Shown here piece by piece: positions 21,604 to 50,380 of a stretch of DNA of 50,380 nucleotides; the first letter of the stretch is position 1, and every line of letters starts with the position of its first letter. Origin of the DNA: Myxococcales bacterium (GTDB lineage Bacteria; Myxococcota_A; UBA9042; JABWCM01; BTVJ01); the NCBI GenBank assembly GCA_045863395.1, contig BTVJ01000051.1:1-50380 (forward strand), read 5' to 3'. Below the pieces are notes generated by a model. The model saw only the letters and a list, made by a program, of their open reading frames with translations, was not told the DNA's origin and did not search any database. Position numbers and translations under genes: made by a program.

Positions 21604-24600
21604 ATGAGAAGAGCGCTTCTGGCTCTCGTGCTGCTCCTGTGGGGCTGTGGCGACGACGCGATCCAGCGAGGCGGCGACGCCGGCGACGTCGGCGGCATCG
21701 GGGGCATCGATGGGGTCAGCGGGGGCGGCGACGTGGAGGCGCCCGACGCCGCAGGTGGCGAGGGCAGCGGGGACATCGACGCCGTCGCCGACGTCGGGCC
21801 AGTGGCTGACACCCAGGACGGACCGGCCACCGGCGAGCCCGGGTACCCGTGCAAGAGCGGGAGCGACTGCTACAGCGGGTGGTGCGTCCAGGGGCCGGAC
21901 GGCGGGGAGTGCGCCGCCCCGTGCGCGGGCAACGACTCCTGTCCCACCGGCTGGATGTGCTCCCAGGTCGCGACCCACCCGGATCTGACCTTCGTCTGCG
22001 TCTACACCATGCCGAACCTGTGCCGCCCGTGTGCGACGGACGGGGACTGTGCGGCCCTCTTCGGCGAGGATCCGGGCGTCTGCGTGAGCGCGGGCGAGCA
22101 GGAGGGGAGCTACTGCTCCTATCCGTGCAAGGCGGACCAGACCTGCCCCACAGGGTACGGCTGTGGCGCCCCGGGCGGCGCCCAGCGGTGCTGGCCGGAG
22201 GGCGCCTGCGCCTGCACGCCCTCGTGGGAGGGCCTCTCGACCCCGTGCGCCGCGACGAGCGATGCGGGGACCTGCTCCGGGCAGCGCACCTGCTCGGGCG
22301 GCGCCTACACGGAGTGCTCGGCACCGGTCGCGGCCGAGGAGACCTGCAACGGTGCGGACGACGACTGCGACGGCCAGGTGGACGAGGGCGTCGGAGGGGG
22401 CTCCTGCGACCTGAGCAACGAGCACGGCGCGTGCCCCGGTGCAGAGACCTGCGAAGGGGGTGCGCTGCTGTGCGTCGGGGTGCCCCCGGCGGCGGAGAAG
22501 TGCGACGGCGCCGACCAGAACTGCGACGGCGTGGCCGACGAGGGCTACCCCGACCAGGACGAGGACGGCGTCGCCGACTGCGTGGACGACGACCTGGACG
22601 GCGACGGCGTCGCCAACGGGGTGGACAACTGCCCGGCCGTGGCCAATGGAGAGCAGGCGGACCTGGACCTGGACGGCAAGGGAGACCCCTGCGACCCGGA
22701 CGCAGACGGCGACCTGGCGGCCAACGAAGGGGACTGTGCCCCGCTCGACTCCAAGATCTTCCCGGGGGCCCCCGAGGCGTGCAACGGGGTGGACGATGAC
22801 TGCGACGCAGCCGTCGACGAGGGCTTCCCGGACCTGGACGGTGACGGCGTGGCCGACTGCGTGGACGCGGACAAGGACGGCGACGAGGTCCCCGACATCG
22901 ACGACAACTGCCCGCTGATCGCGAACCCCGGCCAGGAGGACCAGGACGAGGACGGCAAGGGCGACGCCTGCGACGGCGACTCCGACGGAGACGGCGACCC
23001 GGATTTGACCGACTGCGCGCCCCTCGACCCGGCCATCCACCACGGTGCACCGGAGGTGTGCGACGGGGTGGACCAGAACTGCAACGCCATCGCCGACGAG
23101 GGCTTCCCGGACACGGACAAGGACGGCCTCGCCGACTGCGTGGACCCGGACGACGACGGCGACGGGGTCGAGGACGCGCTGGACTGCGCGCCGGTCGACC
23201 CGCTGATCCCTGCGGCGACCGAGAGCTGCAACGGCAAGGACGACGACTGCAACGGGCAGGTGGACGAGGGCTTCACCGACACCGACGGCGACGGCGTCGC
23301 GGACTGCGTGGACACGGACGACGACGGCGACGGGGTCGCGGACCCGCAAGACAACTGCCCCCTCGTCTCGAACCCGGGACAGGAGGACCAGGACAAGGAC
23401 GGCAAGGGCGACGCCTGCGACGGCGACTGGGACGGCGACAAGGACCCGAATGAGACCGACTGCGCGCCGCTGGACGGCAAGATCCACCACGAGGCCCTGG
23501 AGAGCTGCAACGGGGTGGACGACGACTGCGACGGTGTGACCGACGAGGGCTACAGCGACCTGGACGCGGACGGGGTGGCGGACTGCATGGACGACGACGA
23601 CGACGGGGACGGGGTCGTCGACTCGCAGGACAACTGTCCGGTGACCTTCAACGCGGACCAGGCGGACCTGGACGGAGACGGCAAGGGGGACGCCTGCGAG
23701 AACGACAAGGACGGCGACGGAGACCCGGATCTGACCGACTGCGCGCCGCTCGACCCTCTGGTGCACCACGGCGCCCAGGAGCTGTGTGACGGCGTGGACC
23801 AGAACTGCAACGCCATCGCCGACGAGGGCTTCGCGGACACGGACAAGGACGGCGTCGCAGACTGCGTCGATGGGGACGACGACGGGGACACGATCCCCGA
23901 CGGCGAGGACAACTGCCCCCTGGCAGCGAACAAGCCGCAGAAGGACACGGACGGAGACGGCCTCGGAGACGCCTGCGACCCGGACGACGACGACGACGGC
24001 GAGCCCGACGAGAGTGACTGCGGGCCGCTGGACTTGGCGGTCTACCCCGGGGCGCCGGAGGTCTGCAACGGCAAGGACGACGACTGCGACGGGCAGACCG
24101 ACGAGCAGGACGCCAGCGGCTGCACGGTCTACTTCTACAACAAGGACGGCGACGGCTATGGCATCGACCTTCTGACGCGGTGCCTGTGCGTCCCCGAGGC
24201 GCCGTTCACGGCGCTGGTGGACGGAGACTGCAACGACCAGAACGCCCAGGTGTTCCCGGACGCCACCGAGGTCTGCAACGGCAAGGACGACGACTGCGAC
24301 GAGGAGGTCGACGAGGTGGGCGCCCTCGGCTGCACCCTCCACTGGCAGGACTCCGACCTGGACTCCTGGGGTGGCCCTGCGACGGCGTGCCTGTGTGTGA
24401 TCAAGCCCGGCTGGGCCCAGAAGGGCGGAGATTGCGACGACACGTTGCCGCTCGTGAACCCGACGGCCATGGAGGCCTGCAACGGCATCGACGACGACTG
24501 CGATGGGCTGGTGGACGAGATCGGCGCCAACGGCTGCGACAAGCTCTACGCCGACAAGGACCAGGACGGGTTCGGCCTGACCGCCGACAACAAGTGCTTG

Positions 24601-35966: not shown

Positions 35967-38900
35967 ATGACTTCGACCACTGACGTACTCCCGCACGGAT
36001 ACTCCATCCGGAAGCGTGTGGGGACTACCATCTCCACGCTCCAAATCAGCCCCGCGGCGCTGCGACTGCTCCTGCTGGCCCTGGTGCTCTCCGCTGGTGC
36101 CTGCGTGGACGTGGGTACACCTGGGCCGCTCGGCGGGGTCGATGGGGGCACCACCGATGGAGACTCCGGGGGTGAATCGCCCGACGTGGCCGACACCGGA
36201 ACGACTCACGAGGACGGCGCCGCGGAGGGCGACGGGGCCTCGCCGGACGGGCTTGGTGCCGATTCGGGGGGAGACACTGCGGTGGATGTCACTGAGGGGG
36301 ACTCGATCGACGCGGTCACGGACACGACGGACGGCGGAGGGGATTCGGCAGACGCCGATGGCCAGGACACGCTCGCGGACGCTGGCGGAGACTCGGGGGG
36401 AGACACGGGCGGCGATGTCAGCGAAGATTCGGGAACGGACTCCGGTGATACGGGTGGAGACTCCGGAGAGGACACCGGCGGAGACGCCTCCGCGGACGTC
36501 GGTGCAGACACGGGCGGAGACACGGGCGGAGACACGGGCGGAGACACCGGCGAGGACGTCGCCACAGGCTGCCAGGGCACCTCGGACTGCGACGACGGCG
36601 ACGCCTGCACCGCGGACGACTGCCTCCCTGACGGCACCTGCGCCCACGAGGCGAAGCTCTGTGACGACGGCAACGCCTGCACCGTGAGCGTCTGCAACCC
36701 GATGAGCGGCAACTGCTCCAGCGCGCCCGTGAGCTGCGAAGACGGCGACCCCTGCACCCTGGACGTGTGCTTCGCCGGCATCGGCTGTACCGCGGTGCCC
36801 GCCCCCTGCGACGACGGCGACGCCTGCACAGAGGACGTCTGCACCGCGGGCGCCGGCTGCACGAGCGCCCCCCTCGACTGCGACGACGGCGACGCCTGCA
36901 CCGTGGACTCCTGCGCGCCGGTTGGCGGGTGCGCCAACGTGGCGAAGCCCTGCGGAGGAACGCTCTGCAACCCGAGCACCTGTGATCCCGCCGTCGGCGA
37001 GTGCACGTCTGCGCCCCTCGACTGTGACGACGGCCTCGCGTGCACCGCGGACTCCTGCGACCCCGTGGCCGGCTGCATCAACGCCCCCCTGCCCTGCGCG
37101 AGCAACGATCCGTGCGTGACGGGCGCATGTGAGGAGCCGGCAGGGTGCGTCTTCGTGGAGGCGAGCTGCGGTGACGGGGGCGCGTGCGTGGCCATGGCGT
37201 GCGATCCGGCCAAGGGCTGCGTGTCCGCGCCGCTGGACTGCGGCGACGGCGACCCCTGCACCTGGGACGCATGCACCCCGGGCGTGGGGTGCGACTATGT
37301 GCCGAACCCCGACTGCAAGGGGTGCGTGAGCGCCGCGGAGTGCAGCGACGGCGACCCCTGCACCACCGACGCGTGCAATGACGGCCAGTGCGGCCACTCG
37401 TCCCTCGTCTGCGACGATGGTGACGCCTGCACGGCGGACGCGTGCAAGCCTGGCGTCGGGTGTACGGCGGTCGCGATCCCCTGCGACGACGGCGACGCCT
37501 GCACTGCGGACTCCTGCGACCCGGCGACGGGGATCTGCCAGCACACCGAGTCACCCTGCGACGACGGGGACGCCTGCACGGAGGACGGCTGCAACGCGCT
37601 GACGGGCACGTGCAGCCACGGGGCCGTCGCGTGCTTCGACGGCAGCCCCTGCACGACTGACGCCTGCGCAGGCGGGGCGTGCGTGTTCACGCCCGTGCCG
37701 TGCGAGGATGGGAACGTCTGCACCACGGACTCCTGCCACCCGTCCATCGGGTGCATCCACGCGCCGTCCGGGTGCGACGACGGGAACGCCTGCACCGCCG
37801 ACTCCTGCGACCCGCCGACCGGGTGCAAGCACGCGGCGGTGACGTGCAACGATGGGGACGCCTGTACCGTCGACTCCTGCCTGCCCGGCGCCGGATGCGC
37901 CTTCGCGCCCAAGGACTGCGACGACGGCGACGCCTGCACGGAGGACGGGTGCGCGGCGGGGGCCTGCACGCACGCCCCGTCCGCGCAGTGTGACGACGGC
38001 AGCGTCTGCACGCTCGACGTGTGCGACGCCCTCGCCGGGTGTACCTGGTCGCCGATCCCCTGCCCGTCCGTGGGCTGCGCCACGCAGATCTGCGACCCGG
38101 TGGACGGGTGTGTCGCCGCTCCCTCCCTCTGCGACGACGGGGACGCCTGCACCCAGGACGCCTGCGTGGGGTCCACCTGCCAGCACACGGCGACCACGTG
38201 CAACGACGGCGATGTGTGTACCGACGACCTGTGCGACCCCAAGACGGGCGCCTGCGTCCAGGTGCCTGTGTTCTGTGACTCGTCTGACCCGTGCATGACC
38301 GGGAGCTGCCTCGGACCCACGACCGGCTGCGTGGAGGCGCCGAAGCTCTGCCCCGGTGCCGACTTCTGCAACGACGCGGTGTGCATCGGGGGGGCGTGCA
38401 CGCTGGTGCCCACGAGCTGCGACGACGGCGACCCTTGCACCGCCGATGCCTGCGGCGCCACGGGCTGCACCCACGCCCCCATCGCGGGGTGCGGCACGTG
38501 CCAGACGGCCGCGGACTGCACGGTGTTGGGGCCCTGCCTCCAGGCGGTCTGCGCGGCGGCGCCCGTCGGCTGCACCTACACCCAGGTCCCCTGCCCCGAC
38601 GCGGGCCCGTGCGTGGAGTCCATCTGCGACCCGGGCTCGGGCTCCTGCGGGTATCAGGCCGGCGGCTGCGACGACGACGACCCGTGCACCACGGACCTGT
38701 GCGCCCCGGACGGGAGCTGCACGCACGCCCCGAAGAGCTGCTCCGACCTGGACCCGTGCTCCCTCGACTTCTGCGACACGGACGGCTCGTGCAAGCACGT
38801 GGCGGGCGCCAACTGCCACGACTGCACCTCGGCGGCCCAGTGCGACGACCAGGACCCGTGCACCGACAACCTGTGCACGGGGGGGCAGTGCACCTTCGCG

Positions 38901-44218: not shown

Positions 44219-44686
44219 ATGGCCAATGACTACGTGGAGCTGCTCGCCGCGCTGGATGGGATCGCGCAGGACCCGCGCCACCATCCCGAGGGGGACGCCC
44301 TCTTCCACTCCCTGCAGGTCTTCGCTCACGCGCGGTCAGAGACGCGGGACTCCGAGCTCGTGACCGCGGCGCTCCTGCACGACTGCGGCAAAGCGATCCG
44401 CAGCCGAGACCACGACAGGCTTGGCGCAGAGCTCCTGGACGGCCTCGTGTCGCCGCGGGTCGTGTGGCTCGTGCGGCATCACCTGGACCTGCTGCGCGAG
44501 CCGGCGCGGACGCGGCGGCGCCTCCGAGGCACGCCGGAGCTCCGCGATCTGGAGCTGCTGAGGTCATGGGACCTGCGGGGCCGGTCTCCCTGGGCGTCGG
44601 TCTGCTCCATCGAGGAGGCCGCGACGTTCACTTCACTCCCACCGCCCCCCGGTGCGCTCACCGGCCCCTATGACCCCACGCGATGA
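44219..44686 (+). CDS. HD-domain phosphohydrolase-like protein (155 aa)
   Basis: HD motifs (DPRHHPEGDALFHSLQV … LVTAALLHDCGKAI … VRHHLDLL) resemble the HD domain of CCA-adding-enzyme-type proteins. The stop overlaps the next start (ATGA at 44683-44686). Confidence 0.6.
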   Translation: MANDYVELLAALDGIAQDPRHHPEGDALFHSLQVFAHARSETRDSELVTAALLHDCGKAIRSRDHDRLGAELLDGLVSPRVVWLVRHHLDLLREPARTRRRLRGTPELRDLELLRSWDLRGRSPWASVCSIEEAATFTSLPPPPGALTGPYDPTR

Positions 44687-45023
44687 ACCCGGCCGCGACA
44701 ACCGGCTCTGCTTCTGGCCCGATCTCGACCGTCTGACCAGCGACCGTTCCCTGTGGAGCGACGAGGCCCCGCTCAGCGAGGCGCTCCAGCGCGCCCAGGA
44801 CCAGCTCCGGTGCGCGCTTGCCCGGCTGACGCCCAGCCAGCGGGAGGCGGTCGAACTCTTCTACTTCGACGGCCTCTCGGAGGGGCAGATAGGACACCGC
44901 CTCGGCGTGAGCCAACAGACCATCCACCGCCGCATCCACGGCGCCCCGCGCGGCGGGCGGGTGGTGGGGGGGGCGCTGGCGCGGCTCCGGGCCCTCCTCG
45001 GGGAGTGGCGTGGGCGCCCGTGA
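44670..45023 (+). CDS. small sigma-70 region-4-like HTH protein (117 aa)
   Basis: LTPSQREAVELFYFDGLSEGQIGHRLGVSQQTIHRRI matches the region-4 HTH of ECF sigma factors but region 2 is absent. An alternative GTG start lies at 44652. The stop overlaps the next gene start (TGATG at 45021-45025). Confidence 0.45.
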   Translation: MTPRDEPGRDNRLCFWPDLDRLTSDRSLWSDEAPLSEALQRAQDQLRCALARLTPSQREAVELFYFDGLSEGQIGHRLGVSQQTIHRRIHGAPRGGRVVGGALARLRALLGEWRGRP

Positions 45024-45790
45024 TGCGCGCTGACCAGCGCAGGACCTCCATCGCCCGGGAGGCCGCCCGGCTCATGCTGGAGGAGGGCGTGCGGCAGTAC
45101 TTCGACGCGAAGCGCATCGCGGCGCGGCGCCTGCCCGGACAGCGCCGGCAGCGCCGGGACCGGGCCGGGGACCTGCCGTCGAACGGCGAGATCCGGGACG
45201 CGCTCCTCGAGCTGGTCGAGCTGACCGAGGGGTCGAGCCGCGGGCGGCGGCTCTTCGCCATGAGGGTGACCGCCTGGCAGACGATGGGGGCGCTGCTCCC
45301 GTTCCGGCCCCGCTTGATCGGGTCGGTGGCGACCGGGCACGTCCGGCGCGGCAGCGACATCGATCTACACGTCTTCACGGAGTCGGAGCAGACCCTCGAA
45401 GGCTTCCTCTGGAATCTCGGCTGGACCTTCGAGACGAGCCGCGTGAGCGTGCGAAAGGGGGGAGTGATCCGCGAGTTCACGCACGTCCACGTCGATCGGG
45501 GCTTCCCCGTGGAGCTCTCGGTGTACCCGCCCGAGGAGCTGCGCGTCCGCGGCCGCAGCAGCACGGACGGCCGCCCCATCGAGCGGCTGTCGAGGGCGGC
45601 CGTCGAGCGGCTGCTGGTGCGAGACCACCCGACCGAGTGGGCGGCCTGGTGCGGAGGCGCCCCCGGCGACCTGTCAGAGACCGACCTGCCCGACACGTCC
45701 GCGGTGGAGGACCTGCTCGCGCTCGGCGACCCGGACGCTCCGGAAGGGGACGCCGCAGGGCTCTCCGGGCGAGGGGGGCGCCTCATCTGA
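45023..45790 (+). CDS. Pol-beta-superfamily nucleotidyltransferase (minimal NTase, 255 aa)
   Basis: NTase signature GSVATGHVRRGSDIDLHVF (GS-x10-DxD). A candidate third acidic residue lies in THVHVDRGF. A basic N-terminal region precedes the core. Confidence 0.6.
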   Translation: MRADQRRTSIAREAARLMLEEGVRQYFDAKRIAARRLPGQRRQRRDRAGDLPSNGEIRDALLELVELTEGSSRGRRLFAMRVTAWQTMGALLPFRPRLIGSVATGHVRRGSDIDLHVFTESEQTLEGFLWNLGWTFETSRVSVRKGGVIREFTHVHVDRGFPVELSVYPPEELRVRGRSSTDGRPIERLSRAAVERLLVRDHPTEWAAWCGGAPGDLSETDLPDTSAVEDLLALGDPDAPEGDAAGLSGRGGRLI

Positions 45791-46396: not shown

Positions 46397-46530
46397 TGAC
46401 CTCCTCCTCTGCCGCGCGACGACGGCGTCGGGCACAGTCTACAGCATGACCCGGGAGCCAGACCACGCGCACGGCCCCCTGTAGCCTCGCGCGCCGGATG
46501 GAGCGAGCCGGTTGCCTCCTCTGCCACACC

Positions 46531-46772
46531 CGCGGAGGCATCGTCACGATACCGCGGGGGCATCGACCGGATACCGCGGGGGCATCGTCCCGATACCGCG
46601 GGGGCATCGACCGGATACCGCGGGGGCATCGACCGGATACCGCGGGGGCATCGACCGGATACCGCTGGGGCATCGACCGGATACCGAGGAGGCATCGACC
46701 GGATAGTACTGAGGTATCGACCGAATACTACGCAGGGATTGGGCGGTGACCTCGGAGGCATCCCGCGACCAC
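46531..46772. repeat. tandem direct repeat array: ~11 units of 22 bp (consensus CGCGGGGGCATCGACCGGATAC), 8 near-perfect
   Basis: Read directly from the sequence. Units begin at 46531, 46553, 46575, 46597, 46619, 46641, 46663, 46685 and 46707, then degenerate at 46729 and 46751. There are no unique spacers, so it is not CRISPR. The array lies between the Uma2 gene start and the 3' end of CDS 46842..47264. Confidence 0.9.
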
Positions 46773-46841
46773 CGCCGGGGGATGCCGTGGAACCTCCGAC
46801 GGGCTCACGGAGACACCCCGACAGGCTGGCGCGAACGGGTG

Positions 46842-47264
46842 CTACTTGTACCCGATCCAGGATCGCAGCCCGGAGAAGGCCGTCTCCAGCCCCGCGTCGC
46901 GCTTCGCTTGCGCGTTCACCTGGTCGTTGACTCTGCGGAGCTGGGACGCCGCGTCGGCGTCGAACAGCAGATTGGCCTGCTTCAGAGTCTGCAGCAGCAC
47001 CTCGAGGTCCGAGATCACCTGGTCGATGCCCTCGGCGCGGGCACCTGCCGCGCGGAGCGAGTCGGGAGTCACCCCGGCGGGCGCGGCGAACCGTCCATCG
47101 AGCTTGGACAGCGCGTCTGCGGTAGCCTCGCAAGCAGCTCCGACGCCGCGACGGGCCTTGGGGATCGCGCGCACCTGGTCCACATTCAGCGTCCCGGCCT
47201 CGGGCGGCAGGGCGAGCGCGTCGGGGATGATGATTGTGACGGTACCCTGCTTGATCTCGGGCAT
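46842..47264 (-). CDS. hypothetical protein (140 aa)
   Basis: Start MPEIKQGTVTIII has the RBS AGGAGAGG. The C-terminal half is predicted helical. No family recognised. Confidence 0.5.
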   Translation of the reverse strand: MPEIKQGTVTIIIPDALALPPEAGTLNVDQVRAIPKARRGVGAACEATADALSKLDGRFAAPAGVTPDSLRAAGARAEGIDQVISDLEVLLQTLKQANLLFDADAASQLRRVNDQVNAQAKRDAGLETAFSGLRSWIGYK

Positions 47265-47622
47265 GTGCCTCTCCTGGTGGTGAACGCGGCCATACTGGGC
47301 AGCGACGAACCCCGCCGCCGCCCCCCTGACCACTTGGACCTTGGCAACGCGCCGATGGGGCCACAGAGGCGGGCGCCTGTCAAGGGCGCTCGCGTGCCCG
47401 AGTCGTGGCGCTGGGTGGGGACCCGTCCCTCCGCCGCCCGGCGCCGGGATGGTTGACGGGCCGGAGCGAGGGCAGCACACTTGGCGTCGCTCGCGGCGCC
47501 AGGCGAACCAGAGGTGTGTGACGTCCATCGCCCGGTGCCTCCCCTCGACTCCGGTCGCGGCACACACGGCGCCCCGGTCGCGGGGCGCGACCGACCCCAC
47601 AATTCCGGGAGACACGCCGAAG

Positions 47623-50380
47623 ATGCACCCACTCGAGACGTACCTTCGAGACCTGCGCGAGGCGCGCTTCGGCGGTGTCGCCGAGACCACGCACTATCCG
47701 GCGCTCCGCGCGCTGCTCAACGCCGCGGGTGAGTCTCTGCGCCCGCGCGTGCGGTGCATGGTCCATCCCAGGAGCCAAGGCGCCGGCATCCCAGACGCGG
47801 GGCTGTTCACCGCGGACCAGATCGGTGAGAGCGACGAGGACGCCGGGGCGAGCCTGCTCGCCGGGGGGGTGCTGCCTGCACGTGGTGTGGTCGAGGCCAA
47901 GCCAACGAGCCACGGTGTCCTGCAGACAGCCGCCAGCGCGCAGGTGGCGAGCTACCTCGAACGGTACGGCAGCGTCCTCGTGACGAACTACTGGAGCTTC
48001 CTCCCGCTGCAGCACGAGGGGGGACGCCCGGCGACGCGCCTCGAGTCGTATCAGCTCGCGAGGAGCGAGGCGGAGTTCTGGCAGGCGGTCGCGCACCCGC
48101 GGGCGCTCGTCGCAGAGCACGGCGACAGCCTCCTCGACTATCTCCGGCGCGTCCTCCTGCTCCGTGCCGCGCTGAGGGACCCGGCCGACGTCGCGTGGGT
48201 GCTGGCCTCCTACGCGCGCCGCGCCCGTCGCTCCCTCGAGAAGCTCGACCTCGAGATCCTCGACGCGCTCCGGGCGGCCATGGAGCGGACGCTCGGTGTC
48301 ACCTTCGACGAGCGCCGGGGGCAGCACTTCTTCCGGTCGACGGTCATTCAGACGCTGTTCTATGGCCTGTTCTCCGCCTGGGTGCTCTGGGCGCGGACCC
48401 ACGGCCCCGAGGAGCGCTTCGACTGGCGGCTCGCGGTCCACGAGCTCCGCGTCCCCGTCGTGAGGGCGCTCTTCGAGCAGGTCTCCGCGCCGAGCAAGGT
48501 CAAGCCCCTCCAGCTCGCCGCCATCCTCGAGTGGACCGGCGAGGCCCTCAACCGCGTGAACCGGGGCGCGTTCTTCGAGAGCTTCGACGAGGGGCACGCG
48601 ATCCAGTACTTCTATGAGCCCTTTCTGGAGCAGTTCGATCCCGTGCTCCGCAAGGACCTGGGGGTCTGGTACACGCCGCCCGAGATCGTCCGCACCATGG
48701 TCGAGCGGGTCGACCGCGTGCTCCGGGACGAGCTCGGCCGCGCCGACGGCCTCGCGGACCCGGACGTGTACGTCCTCGACCCGTGCTGCGGAACGGGCGC
48801 GTACGTGCTGGAGGTCGTGCGGCGCATCCAGGCGACCCTCGAAGACGCGGGCGCGGGGGCTCTGCTCGGGGCGAAGCTCCGGAGGGCGGTCACCTCGCGC
48901 ATCTTCGGGTTCGAGATCCTGCCGGCTCCCTTCGTCATCGCGCACATGCAGGTGGGCATCCTGCTCCAGGGCCTGGGGACCGCGCTCGACCACGAGAAGG
49001 ACGAGCGGGCCGCGATCTACCTGACGAACGCGCTCACCGGGTGGGATCCGCCGGCGCCGGCGAGCGGCCAGGCGGCGACGCAGATCCCCTTCGCGTTCCC
49101 CGATCTGGAGGCCGAGCAGAGGGCAGCGGCGTCCGTCAAGCGGAGCCGTCCCATCCTGGTCGTGCTCGGCAACCCGCCCTACAACGCCTTTGCCGGCGTG
49201 TCTTCCGAGAGCGAGCAGGACGTCGGGCTCTACAAGGAGGGCCTGCAGGAGACCTGGGGGATCAAGAAGTTCAACCTGGACGACCTCTACGTGCGCTTCT
49301 TCCGCCTGGCCGAGCGCCGCGTCGCCGAGATGACCGGGTGCGGGGTCGTGTGCTTCATCTCCAACCACTCCTACCTCTCCGACCCCTCGTTCGTGGTGCT
49401 CCGCGAGCGCCTGGTGCGCCAGTTCGACCGGATCTGGATCGACGGCCTCAACGGCGACAGCCGCGAGACGGGCAAGCGCACGCCGGACGGGGCCCCGGAC
49501 CCGTCGGTGTTCTCGACCCCGACCAACCGCGAGGGCATCCGCCTCGGCACGGCGATCGGGCTCTTCGTCCGCCGGTCCACGCCGGACGGGCAGCGCCACG
49601 TCCGGGCGCGGGAGTTCTGGGGAGCGGCCAAGCGAGAGGAGCTCCTCGCCAGCCTGGACTCCGGCGGGCCCCCCTACGTGGACGTGTCGCCCGCCCCGGC
49701 GAACCGCTGGTCGCTCCGGCGCGTCGAGGCCCGAGCGGGCTACGCGGCGTGGCCGACCGTCGTCTCCTTCGCCGGGACGGAGCCGGTGAGCGGTCTGCAG
49801 GAGATGCGGCGCGGCGCGCTCATGGACATGGACCGCGAGGCGCTCGCGAAGCGGATGCGGGCGTACTTCGGGTCCGCCGCGGAGTGGGAGGCGCTCAAGG
49901 CGGGTGGGGTCGGGCTGGCGGTCAAGGCGGGAAGGTACGACCCCGATGCGAGCCGGATTCGAGTCATGTCCGCAGACCGCTTCCAGGAGGCAAACATCCG
50001 GCGCTACGCGCTCTACCCCCTGGACGTCCGCTGGTGCTACCACTCATCGGTTCGGCCGCTCTGGAACGAGCCCCGCCCGACCCTCGCAGCCCAGGCCTGG
50101 CCCGGCAACCGCTTCTTCGTCGCGCGGATGGTCGCCGAGCGCGCCCGCGAGGGGGCTCCGCTCCTGGTCACCCCGCACCTCCCCGACTACCACCTCCTGC
50201 GCCCGAACGTCGTCGCGATGCCGTTCCGCCTCCGCGAGGTGGTGCCGGACGCGCCGCTCCTCCAACGGACGCTGGGCCTGCCCGCCGCCCCGAAGGAGAC
50301 CGCGAACCTGTCGGCGGCCGCCCGACGCTTCCTCGCGTCGCTGGGTGCGCCGGATCCGGACACCGACCTGGAGTCCTCCG
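47623..50380 (+). CDS. MmeI-family Type IIL (IIG) restriction-modification enzyme, N6-adenine gamma-class MTase with N-terminal PD-(D/E)XK nuclease; 3' end outside window
   Basis: The N-terminus carries a D…ExK motif (AGIPDAGLF … GVVEAKP) and a following …RYGSVLVTNYWSF segment that parallels MmeI. MTase motif I is LDPCCGTGAYVLE (~48775). Motif IV is LGNPPYNAFAG (~49170). The frame stays open to the window end. It is not in the ORF track because no stop is reached. The opposite-strand 887-aa ORF 47380..50043 is a low-complexity shadow ORF. Confidence 0.75.
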   Translation, partial: MHPLETYLRDLREARFGGVAETTHYPALRALLNAAGESLRPRVRCMVHPRSQGAGIPDAGLFTADQIGESDEDAGASLLAGGVLPARGVVEAKPTSHGVLQTAASAQVASYLERYGSVLVTNYWSFLPLQHEGGRPATRLESYQLARSEAEFWQAVAHPRALVAEHGDSLLDYLRRVLLLRAALRDPADVAWVLASYARRARRSLEKLDLEILDALRAAMERTLGVTFDERRGQHFFRSTVIQTLFYGLFSAWVLWARTHGPEERFDWRLAVHELRVPVVRALFEQVSAPSKVKPLQLAAILEWTGEALNRVNRGAFFESFDEGHAIQYFYEPFLEQFDPVLRKDLGVWYTPPEIVRTMVERVDRVLRDELGRADGLADPDVYVLDPCCGTGAYVLEVVRRIQATLEDAGAGALLGAKLRRAVTSRIFGFEILPAPFVIAHMQVGILLQGLGTALDHEKDERAAIYLTNALTGWDPPAPASGQAATQIPFAFPDLEAEQRAAASVKRSRPILVVLGNPPYNAFAGVSSESEQDVGLYKEGLQETWGIKKFNLDDLYVRFFRLAERRVAEMTGCGVVCFISNHSYLSDPSFVVLRERLVRQFDRIWIDGLNGDSRETGKRTPDGAPDPSVFSTPTNREGIRLGTAIGLFVRRSTPDGQRHVRAREFWGAAKREELLASLDSGGPPYVDVSPAPANRWSLRRVEARAGYAAWPTVVSFAGTEPVSGLQEMRRGALMDMDREALAKRMRAYFGSAAEWEALKAGGVGLAVKAGRYDPDASRIRVMSADRFQEANIRRYALYPLDVRWCYHSSVRPLWNEPRPTLAAQAWPGNRFFVARMVAERAREGAPLLVTPHLPDYHLLRPNVVAMPFRLREVVPDAPLLQRTLGLPAAPKETANLSAAARRFLASLGAPDPDTDLESS

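Follow-up and report, generated by a model that had tools for sequence, protein, structure and literature searches.

The iterons of the R6K gamma origin and of pPS10 are 22-bp direct repeats. Type III toxin–antitoxin systems (ToxIN, CptIN and TenpIN) contain ∼36-nt ToxI repeats that form pseudoknots, are transcribed and lie in one orientation, to our knowledge always upstream of the toxin gene, and the toxin itself is an endoribonuclease of the ToxN/AbiQ type. Repetitive extragenic palindromes (REPs) are dispersed genome-wide with no strict head-to-tail register, and the REP-associated tyrosine transposases (RAYTs) are HUH Y1 transposases. In partition systems such as ParR/parC of R1 and pSK41, omega/parS of pSM19035 and TubR/tubC, binding is cooperative and produces a filament or solenoid (PMC5016525). 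KfrA of IncU and IncP plasmids, an alpha-helical protein with a long self-interacting tail, binds five 9-bp repeats near its own gene in RA3, and how many repeats there are, how they are oriented and whether the protein oligomerizes all matter for its function (PMC7783346). Here, we analyze an array of 22-bp tandem repeats in a 50,380-nt stretch of DNA from a Myxococcales bacterium (contig BTVJ01000051.1; the whole stretch is referred to below as the window), where it separates the gene for a 140-aa protein of an orphan family from a gene of the Uma2 family. Comparison across loci shows that the array and the 140-aa gene, not Uma2, are the two halves of a conserved module.

Read directly from the sequence, the 22-bp units abut head-to-tail without spacers over positions 46530–46771. 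This is the eleven-unit array of the original prediction, which had placed it at 46531–46772; the array stands, with a register shift of one base. Its core (46530..46705, not assigned to a strand) comprises eight near-identical units that are evident in the sequence, in a unit scan and with Tandem Repeats Finder (TRF; 46530–46705, period 22, 8.0 copies, 92% matches, score 289). On the + strand these units read CCGCGGAGGCATCGTCACGATA (start at 46530, three mismatches to the consensus), CCGCGGGGGCATCGACCGGATA (46552, 46596, 46618 and 46640), CCGCGGGGGCATCGTCCCGATA (46574), CCGCTGGGGCATCGACCGGATA (46662) and CCGAGGAGGCATCGACCGGATA (46684), and the consensus is CCGCGGGGGCATCGACCGGATA on the + strand or GGTATCCGGTCGATGCCCCCGC on the gene (−) strand. 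Three degenerate units form the gene-proximal end of the array (46706..46771, likewise unstranded, with starts at 46706, 46728 and 46750) and match the consensus at 15/22, 12/22 and 14/22 positions, respectively (55–68% by hand count). Homogeneity is highest among the central units, the edge units being degenerate, and a fainter 22-nt register reaches from 46486 to 46805. Between two strains, there are single-base differences in the last unit and the flank.

A scan of the window for CCGCGGGGGCATCGACCGGATA, tolerating up to three mismatches, returned four exact matches and three with one or two mismatches, all seven of them inside the array, where 0.00 were expected by chance from 100 dinucleotide-preserving shuffles. 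Each unit contains an imperfect palindrome, GGTATC-N5-GATGCC on the − strand, and two CGGT motifs. The palindrome is confined to the array within the 50-kb window, two matches elsewhere with two mismatches being at chance level. An inverted partial unit faces the array at 46757..46786 (unstranded; found by repeat search), with 11-nt arms GGCATCCCGCG and CGGGGGATGCC set 8 nt apart; folded as an RNA hairpin it reaches −27.2 kcal/mol (z = −1.37), no better than shuffled sequences. The organization is not that of a CRISPR locus: there are no unique spacers and the units abut. The original prediction had thought that additional copies of the unit might mark an origin or partition site. A scan of 185,579 species genomes with exact and degenerate forms of the unit gave no match, the 22-bp unit being private to this lineage, and no member of the 140-aa protein family was found in the plasmid and phage collections described below.

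The array is intergenic and both flanking genes are on the − strand. Along that strand, the 140-aa open reading frame (ORF; 47264 to 46842) is followed by a spacer of ∼55 nt, the inverted partial unit (46786–46757), the three degenerate units, eight good GGTATCCGGTCGATGCCCCCGC units, a spacer of 132 nt and Uma2. The Uma2 product matches Pfam PF05685 (E = 2.9e-30) from residue 12 onward, and its start is the ATG at 46397, which is preceded by the ribosome-binding site GGAGGAGG and agrees with independent gene calls on other contigs. Because the start, its ribosome-binding site and the position of the domain all place Uma2 beyond the array, the ORFs crossing it are artifacts of a high-GC repeat, as had been proposed.

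We compared ∼30 loci (designated below by L numbers) encoding relatives of the 140-aa protein, and counted linkage over 32 loci. At 24 of the 32, a 200-nt segment within 600 nt of the family gene had its best autocorrelation at lag 21 or 22, with a value of at least 0.46 (lags 15–29 tested), and TRF identified L043 as a 25th array-bearing locus. Of 1501 background segments at distances above 1.3 kb from the gene, a single one had lag 22 as its best lag with a value of at least 0.42, and none had lag 21 or 22 as best at 0.5 or above. Relative to the family gene the array is downstream at 17 loci, upstream at seven and on both sides at one. A neutral minisatellite (variable number tandem repeat) was also considered and is ruled against by this linkage in 24–25 of the 32 loci together with a core that is conserved in phase. 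The original prediction had taken the lack of a linked DNA-binding protein as the sign of neutrality; the outcome is against neutrality because a linked gene exists.

The arrays differ in length and in preservation. They comprise 20.7 copies of a 22-nt unit at L019 (CGGGAGTGCGCGACGCGGTCCT), 12.3 × 22 at L032 (CATCGAGTAGCTCGGTACCACC, 91% matches), 11.9 × 21 at L033 (TCGGTCGCCGGACCGACAGGC), 11.9 × 22 at L048 (CCGACACCTCCGAGGTATTGCA, 91% matches), 9.0 × 22 at L021, 7.8 × 21 at L040, 7.5 × 22 at L042 and 6.2 × 22 at L038, where matches are 98% and the array reaches the contig end. L024 has three sub-arrays, and fainter arrays are present at L023, L027, L035, L036, L039, L041, L043, L049, L050 and L054. 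At most of the loci where TRF detects no array, lag 22 is still the top lag in the flank, and when these flanks are written in rows of 22 the phase is kept by a short core although the remainder has drifted; L047, for instance, retains GGATCGGTC...GACC.

Higher-order periodicity is common in these arrays. The upstream array at L028 (4670–4870) has a 66-nt super-period in which three different 22-nt units form the repeated block, and the super-period is 44 nt in L021 and 64 nt in L040. In L054 (2236–2630) and L036 (1283–1700), halves of opposite orientation (GCGGTC...CTTCC, then GGAAG...GACCGC) together form one large, imperfect inverted repeat built from 22-nt units. At L041 (520–650), a 66-nt direct duplication with an 8-bp-stem hairpin (TTTGGGGC...GCCCCAAA) separates the upstream array from the gene and looks like a REP-type insertion.

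The 140-aa protein and Uma2 are both encoded as exact copies on numerous short-read contigs that come from several sequencing runs, and every contig that carries the 140-aa gene, its 91% paralog or Uma2 (L001–L018, Logan) ends inside the 22-bp array. Contigs from several runs stopping in the array indicate that it is present in several samples. Short-read assemblies therefore systematically lose or split such arrays, and the pairing is under-represented in public data.

The extent of the inherited unit emerges from a comparison of the window with L021. The two loci encode family proteins that are 91% identical and lie in unrelated neighborhoods, L021 being surrounded by genes for a DUF6279 protein, a PIN–Phd toxin–antitoxin pair and a tetratricopeptide repeat protein. 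Their DNA similarity begins at a TTGACA box ∼119 nt upstream of the ATG (by alignment; blastn detects it from 60 nt upstream), spans the gene and the array, and stops at the distal array edge. Because homology ends there, Uma2 is a mere neighbor. No relative of the window Uma2 was found in any other family locus (tblastn, E ≤ 1e-3). A 61-aa, weakly Uma2-like fragment does lie ∼360 nt downstream of the family gene in L050–L053, on the opposite strand and beside a degenerate array; it looks coincidental, since tblastn with the window Uma2 did not match it. Module neighbors differ at every locus and are mutually unrelated. The link to Uma2 drawn by the original prediction is thus not borne out: Uma2 is not conserved beside arrays elsewhere, and the constant partner is the 140-aa gene, which had been named only as a candidate for mobility-shift assays. 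The helix-turn-helix (HTH) protein encoded at 44670–45023, the other partner proposed, is not conserved beside arrays at other loci either.

The proximal limit of the conserved module is the TTGACA box, a −35-like element at 47378..47383 on the − strand, 119 nt upstream of the start codon, that is kept in the 91%-identical copy at L021. Its promoter role is inferred, since no full sigma-70 consensus was recovered by a promoter scan. Around the array, strict scans for promoters and terminators were negative, and no terminator was detected between the 140-aa gene and the array. The module extends roughly over 46530–47383 and consists of the TTGACA box, the gene, a spacer of ∼70 nt and the array. 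Within a sub-clade of family loci (L036, L038, L046/L047, L049 and L054), a conserved leader lies ∼40–110 nt upstream of the family gene and combines the boxes CTTGCATC and TTTTATC/TTTGATT with a hairpin-forming CGCGGGTGG(A/G)GTTGAGCCCGCGGA element; this leader may be a promoter plus an element of the 5′ untranslated region.

Although unit sequences differ from locus to locus, they share a core, ACCG[AC][GT]C, which reads G[AC][TG]CGGT on the other strand. A Gibbs-type motif search, given one consensus unit per locus in any rotation and either orientation, scored this core at 10.79 bits; in 40 control sets with shuffled units, the score was 8.2 ± 0.24 and did not exceed 8.74. The units also hold short palindromes with conserved arms and variable centers, such as CGAG-NNN-CTCG in L032 and TCGGTC-N4-GACCGA in L033.

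The 140-aa protein (46842..47264, − strand, with the ribosome-binding site AGGAGAGG ahead of its start) has 36 relatives in a collection of 5.8 billion proteins, and with a cutoff of E ≤ 0.001 the family accounts for 176 clusters in a set of 1.84 billion representatives. Almost every member is a single-domain protein of 140–190 aa. Named carriers are mostly Myxococcota (Polyangium, Byssovorax, Polyangiaceae and Myxococcales metagenome-assembled genomes, or MAGs), with one MAG labeled Chloroflexota. The loci sit on contigs of bacterial genome assemblies, two of them >3 Mb, and on metagenome contigs, and at least three assemblies hold two family loci each (the OW818691.1 chromosome and the MAGs JANORL01 and JAEUJZ01). 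The family was not found among 72,556 plasmids (PLSDB), 50,697 phage records (INPHARED) or IMG/VR. Searches of Pfam, NCBIfam, PHROG and PADLOC returned nothing meaningful (Pfam to E ≤ 10 with all 31 members).

A confident AlphaFold2 model built from a 31-sequence alignment (predicted local distance difference test score 92.3, predicted template modeling score 0.68) contains a beta-hairpin (residues 3–12), short helices, a 53-residue helix (67–119) and two short C-terminal helices. The length of this helix suggests that the protein may oligomerize. A fold search with the model gave no match and recovered no ribbon-helix-helix, winged-helix or HTH fold. The motifs PKAxRGxGLxC and LKQANLLFDAxA are conserved in the family, and the sole conserved basic patch spans residues 26–45. 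A resemblance of the N-terminal GTVTIIIPD... to the AbrB/MazE 'VxIP' motif, noticed by eye, was supported by no search and was dropped.

Together, these comparisons point to an undescribed module that recurs across Myxococcota and would pair a presumed binding protein with iterated sites. The best explanation we can offer, held tentatively and with somewhat less than an even chance of being right, is that the array is the cis-acting part of this module and provides a phased, multi-site platform for an oligomerizing protein, probably the module's own. The array would act as double-stranded DNA, as a row of putative sites spaced two helical turns apart and therefore all on the same face of the helix. 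An oligomerizing protein could load cooperatively onto these sites, the probable binder being the 140-aa product, by way of its basic loop (residues 26–45) and its 53-residue helix. The outcome would be a nucleoprotein filament of the same logic as those of ParR/parC, omega/parS, KfrA with its direct-repeat operator, and Rep with iterons. Candidate purposes include autoregulation, anchoring or pairing of DNA, insulation, and maintenance of variable regions rich in defense genes. A multimeric protein-binding array, as proposed in the original prediction, is still the most plausible reading, but neither the gene nor the family to which the original prediction assigned it was the right one.

Several observations weigh against this explanation. 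The family is mildly acidic (median pI 6.1), a real weakness for the 140-aa protein as the binder. Autocorrelation shows no array at L030, L031, L034 and L044, and at the orthologous Polyangium loci L025 and L030 the array is decaying beside an intact gene. Decay or absence of arrays beside intact genes implies that they are perhaps needed only transiently, or that they are a recurrent by-product of some activity of the gene or its site.

The main rival places the function in RNA. In that case the array would be transcribed and act as a tandem-hairpin non-coding RNA, either neutralizing or sequestering the adjacent protein, like a type III toxin–antitoxin system or a sponge, or stabilizing or terminating the mRNA of the gene in the manner of REPs and bacterial interspersed mosaic elements (BIMEs). 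The palindrome in each unit can form a hairpin of 4–7 bp, and the arm mismatch in the window is a G·U wobble on the gene strand; the majority of arrays follow the gene on one DNA stretch, and scans detected no terminator separating the two; several loci adjoin defense or toxin–antitoxin genes, as type III systems often do; and an acidic 140-aa protein is atypical as a DNA binder. Against this, arrays occur upstream as well as downstream, and the core is found in either orientation relative to the gene, both orientations being present within one array at L054 and L036. At L032, L033 and L042, the upstream array is separated from the gene by a TTGAC(A/G) box; judging from this consensus, these arrays are probably outside the gene's transcript. 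In the best stems of 15 arrays and sub-arrays from 13 loci the non-Watson–Crick positions comprise 67 G·T (wobble in the gene-strand RNA) versus 75 A·C, with no strand bias, and the strand asymmetry in minimum free energy is inconsistent across loci, running in both directions. Some palindromes, such as TCCTGGA in L019, are incapable of forming a hairpin, Rfam had no match at E ≤ 1 over 44–49 kb, no ToxN/AbiQ-type domain is present, and the units are 22 nt compared with ∼36 nt for ToxI. Because arrays lie on either side of the gene and in either orientation, lack a G·U strand bias and, when upstream, fall beyond a −35-like box, we favor a role as double-stranded DNA over one as RNA, and consider the RNA explanation unlikely.

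It is rather unlikely, too, that the arrays are functionless by-products tied to the gene, generated for example when replication slips, or repair takes place, at a neighboring site that is palindromic or bound by a protein, homogeneous at birth and decaying afterward. Such a history would account for arrays that range from nearly perfect (98% at L038, 91% at L032 and L048) to barely detectable, for homogeneous central and degenerate edge units, and for the Polyangium orthologs in which the array decays and the gene is intact. It fits less well with a fixed period of 21–22 nt and a common core that persist across proteins 42–60% identical to that of the window, or with degenerate arrays (L047 and L045) in which only the core has kept its phase and the other positions drift, a signature of selection on the core and not of simple decay. 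It is very improbable that the repeats act as iterons in an origin of replication, or that they are a centromere belonging to an integrated plasmid or phage, as the original prediction had suggested. The direct repeats are of 22 bp, as in the iterons of R6K and pPS10, there is an inverted partial unit at one end, and the small linked gene could encode the binder. Type Ib, II and III partition centromeres are likewise repeat arrays beside genes for small binding proteins (PMC5016525). However, the search for Rep, ParA, ParB, ParM or TubZ genes in the window neighborhood was negative, and so was that for Rep, ParA, ParM or TubZ among the called genes of the inspected loci. A GC scan showed no A+T-rich stretch at the array that could serve as an unwinding region, the DnaA box TTATCCACA is absent from the 50-kb window with up to one mismatch allowed, the family was not found in the plasmid, phage and viral collections, and two family loci coexist in at least three assemblies. 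Control of Uma2 by the array, whether as an operator, an upstream activating site or a phase-variable spacer, is equally hard to credit. The array is directly upstream of Uma2, 133 nt away, on the same strand, and shifts in copy number could alter promoter geometry, but window–L021 homology stops at the array, L021 is without Uma2, no relative of the window Uma2 accompanies the other family loci, and the neighbors of arrays elsewhere are unrelated.

The surroundings of the phased-platform candidate are of a defense type, in agreement with the original prediction. Upstream of the 140-aa gene, and divergent from it, is a Type ISP restriction–modification enzyme (N6_Mtase and Type_ISP_C domains; 47623–50380, + strand) that leaves the window end and is 1152 aa in full on contig L001. 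On the far side of Uma2, genes for an HD-domain protein (155 aa), an HTH protein with only sigma-70 region 4 (123 aa) and a nucleotidyltransferase (∼254 aa, a weak MntA-like match) are packed tightly or overlap at 44219–45790 (+ strand); this trio may be a toxin–antitoxin or defense cluster and is not conserved beside arrays at other loci. The further suggestion of a horizontally acquired islet holds for gene content only, since base composition is flat (GC 0.67–0.76) and that of 46–47.5 kb (0.67–0.72) matches the surroundings. Elsewhere in the window, long coding tandem repeats at 22551–24105 and 36471–37881 (periods of 279 and 447 nt, and 72–75 nt) are unrelated to the 22-bp array; their TRF consensus units are rich in GAC, TGC and GGC codons (Asp, Cys and Gly).

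Defense-type or mobile neighbors accompany the module at ∼6 of ∼30 loci. Besides the Type ISP restriction–modification enzyme of the window and the PIN–Phd pair of L021, they include an XhoI-family endonuclease, the ORF start of which abuts the array, with an Eco57I/TaqI-type methylase at L042 (809–3687); the bacteriophage exclusion (BREX) proteins BrxL and PglZ with IS91 and Mutator transposases at L032/L020 (beyond 8.5 kb); a ROC–COR–nucleoside-phosphorylase protein at L033 (6–3065); and an AAA_16 NTPase with an MNT/HEPN pair at L048. These neighborhoods raise the question of what the module does beside restriction–modification, BREX, toxin–antitoxin and NTPase-type genes in several large myxobacterial genomes.

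If linkage reflects function, the locus would exemplify a compact protein-plus-repeat-DNA module that annotation pipelines do not recognize, and one mostly invisible in public data, where the protein is labeled 'hypothetical' everywhere and the arrays interrupt assemblies made from short reads. The proteins known to act on iterated sites would gain a new fold, and the module would supply naturally diverged, perhaps orthogonal, pairs of protein and array. Were the arrays a by-product instead, a gene that repeatedly spawns adjacent 22-bp arrays would be an unusual mutational phenomenon in itself.

Set against the described systems, the module resembles each in part. With type III toxin–antitoxin systems it shares a tandem array tightly linked to a small gene, several defense-type loci, and a repeat length that is kept while the sequence varies, but position, orientation, unit size and toxin family all fail; the ToxN/AbiQ, CptN and TenpN families had no Pfam or PADLOC match among 31 members. 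Like REP/BIME–RAYT systems, the module has a gene with lineage-specific palindromic repeats of its own at its flank, but here the palindrome is restricted to the array within 50 kb and the 140-aa protein lacks a RAYT fold. Rep–iteron origins likewise have helical-phase 22-bp tandem direct repeats adjoining the gene of the presumed binder, with inverted partial copies. They differ in that no Rep-family protein (Pfam, NCBIfam), A+T-rich element or DnaA box was found here, the family was not found on a plasmid or phage, and some assemblies hold two family loci.

Partition systems also place a small protein gene beside a single-locus array of short direct or inverted repeats that diverge between systems (PMC5016525). 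In contrast, the module has no partner NTPase gene (ParA, ParM or TubZ) among the neighbors inspected, no ribbon-helix-helix or winged-helix fold, no family member found on plasmids or phages, and longer arrays (up to ∼21 units) that are mostly downstream of the gene. KfrA is similar in being an alpha-helical protein with a long helix and a row of short direct repeats near its gene, but it is a plasmid-borne protein of ∼350 aa in a stability module with a mapped N-terminal HTH, whereas the protein here has 140 aa and no detected HTH, the units are 22 bp, and most arrays lie away from the promoter. Membership in the partition, KfrA and Rep–iteron groups fails on the defining features tested, and searches of the literature on 22-bp tandem repeats in myxobacteria, or on repeat arrays in defense islands, brought up no description of this module. 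It is possible, though we consider it doubtful, that the module is a new, self-contained class of Myxococcota chromosomal cassette, in which a protein of new fold polymerizes on, or is titrated by, a private array and has a role of its own in variable, defense-rich regions, for example as a minimal anti-phage or anti-plasmid system or as a device that anchors, pairs or insulates islands, rather than a degenerate relative of partition, iteron or toxin–antitoxin systems.
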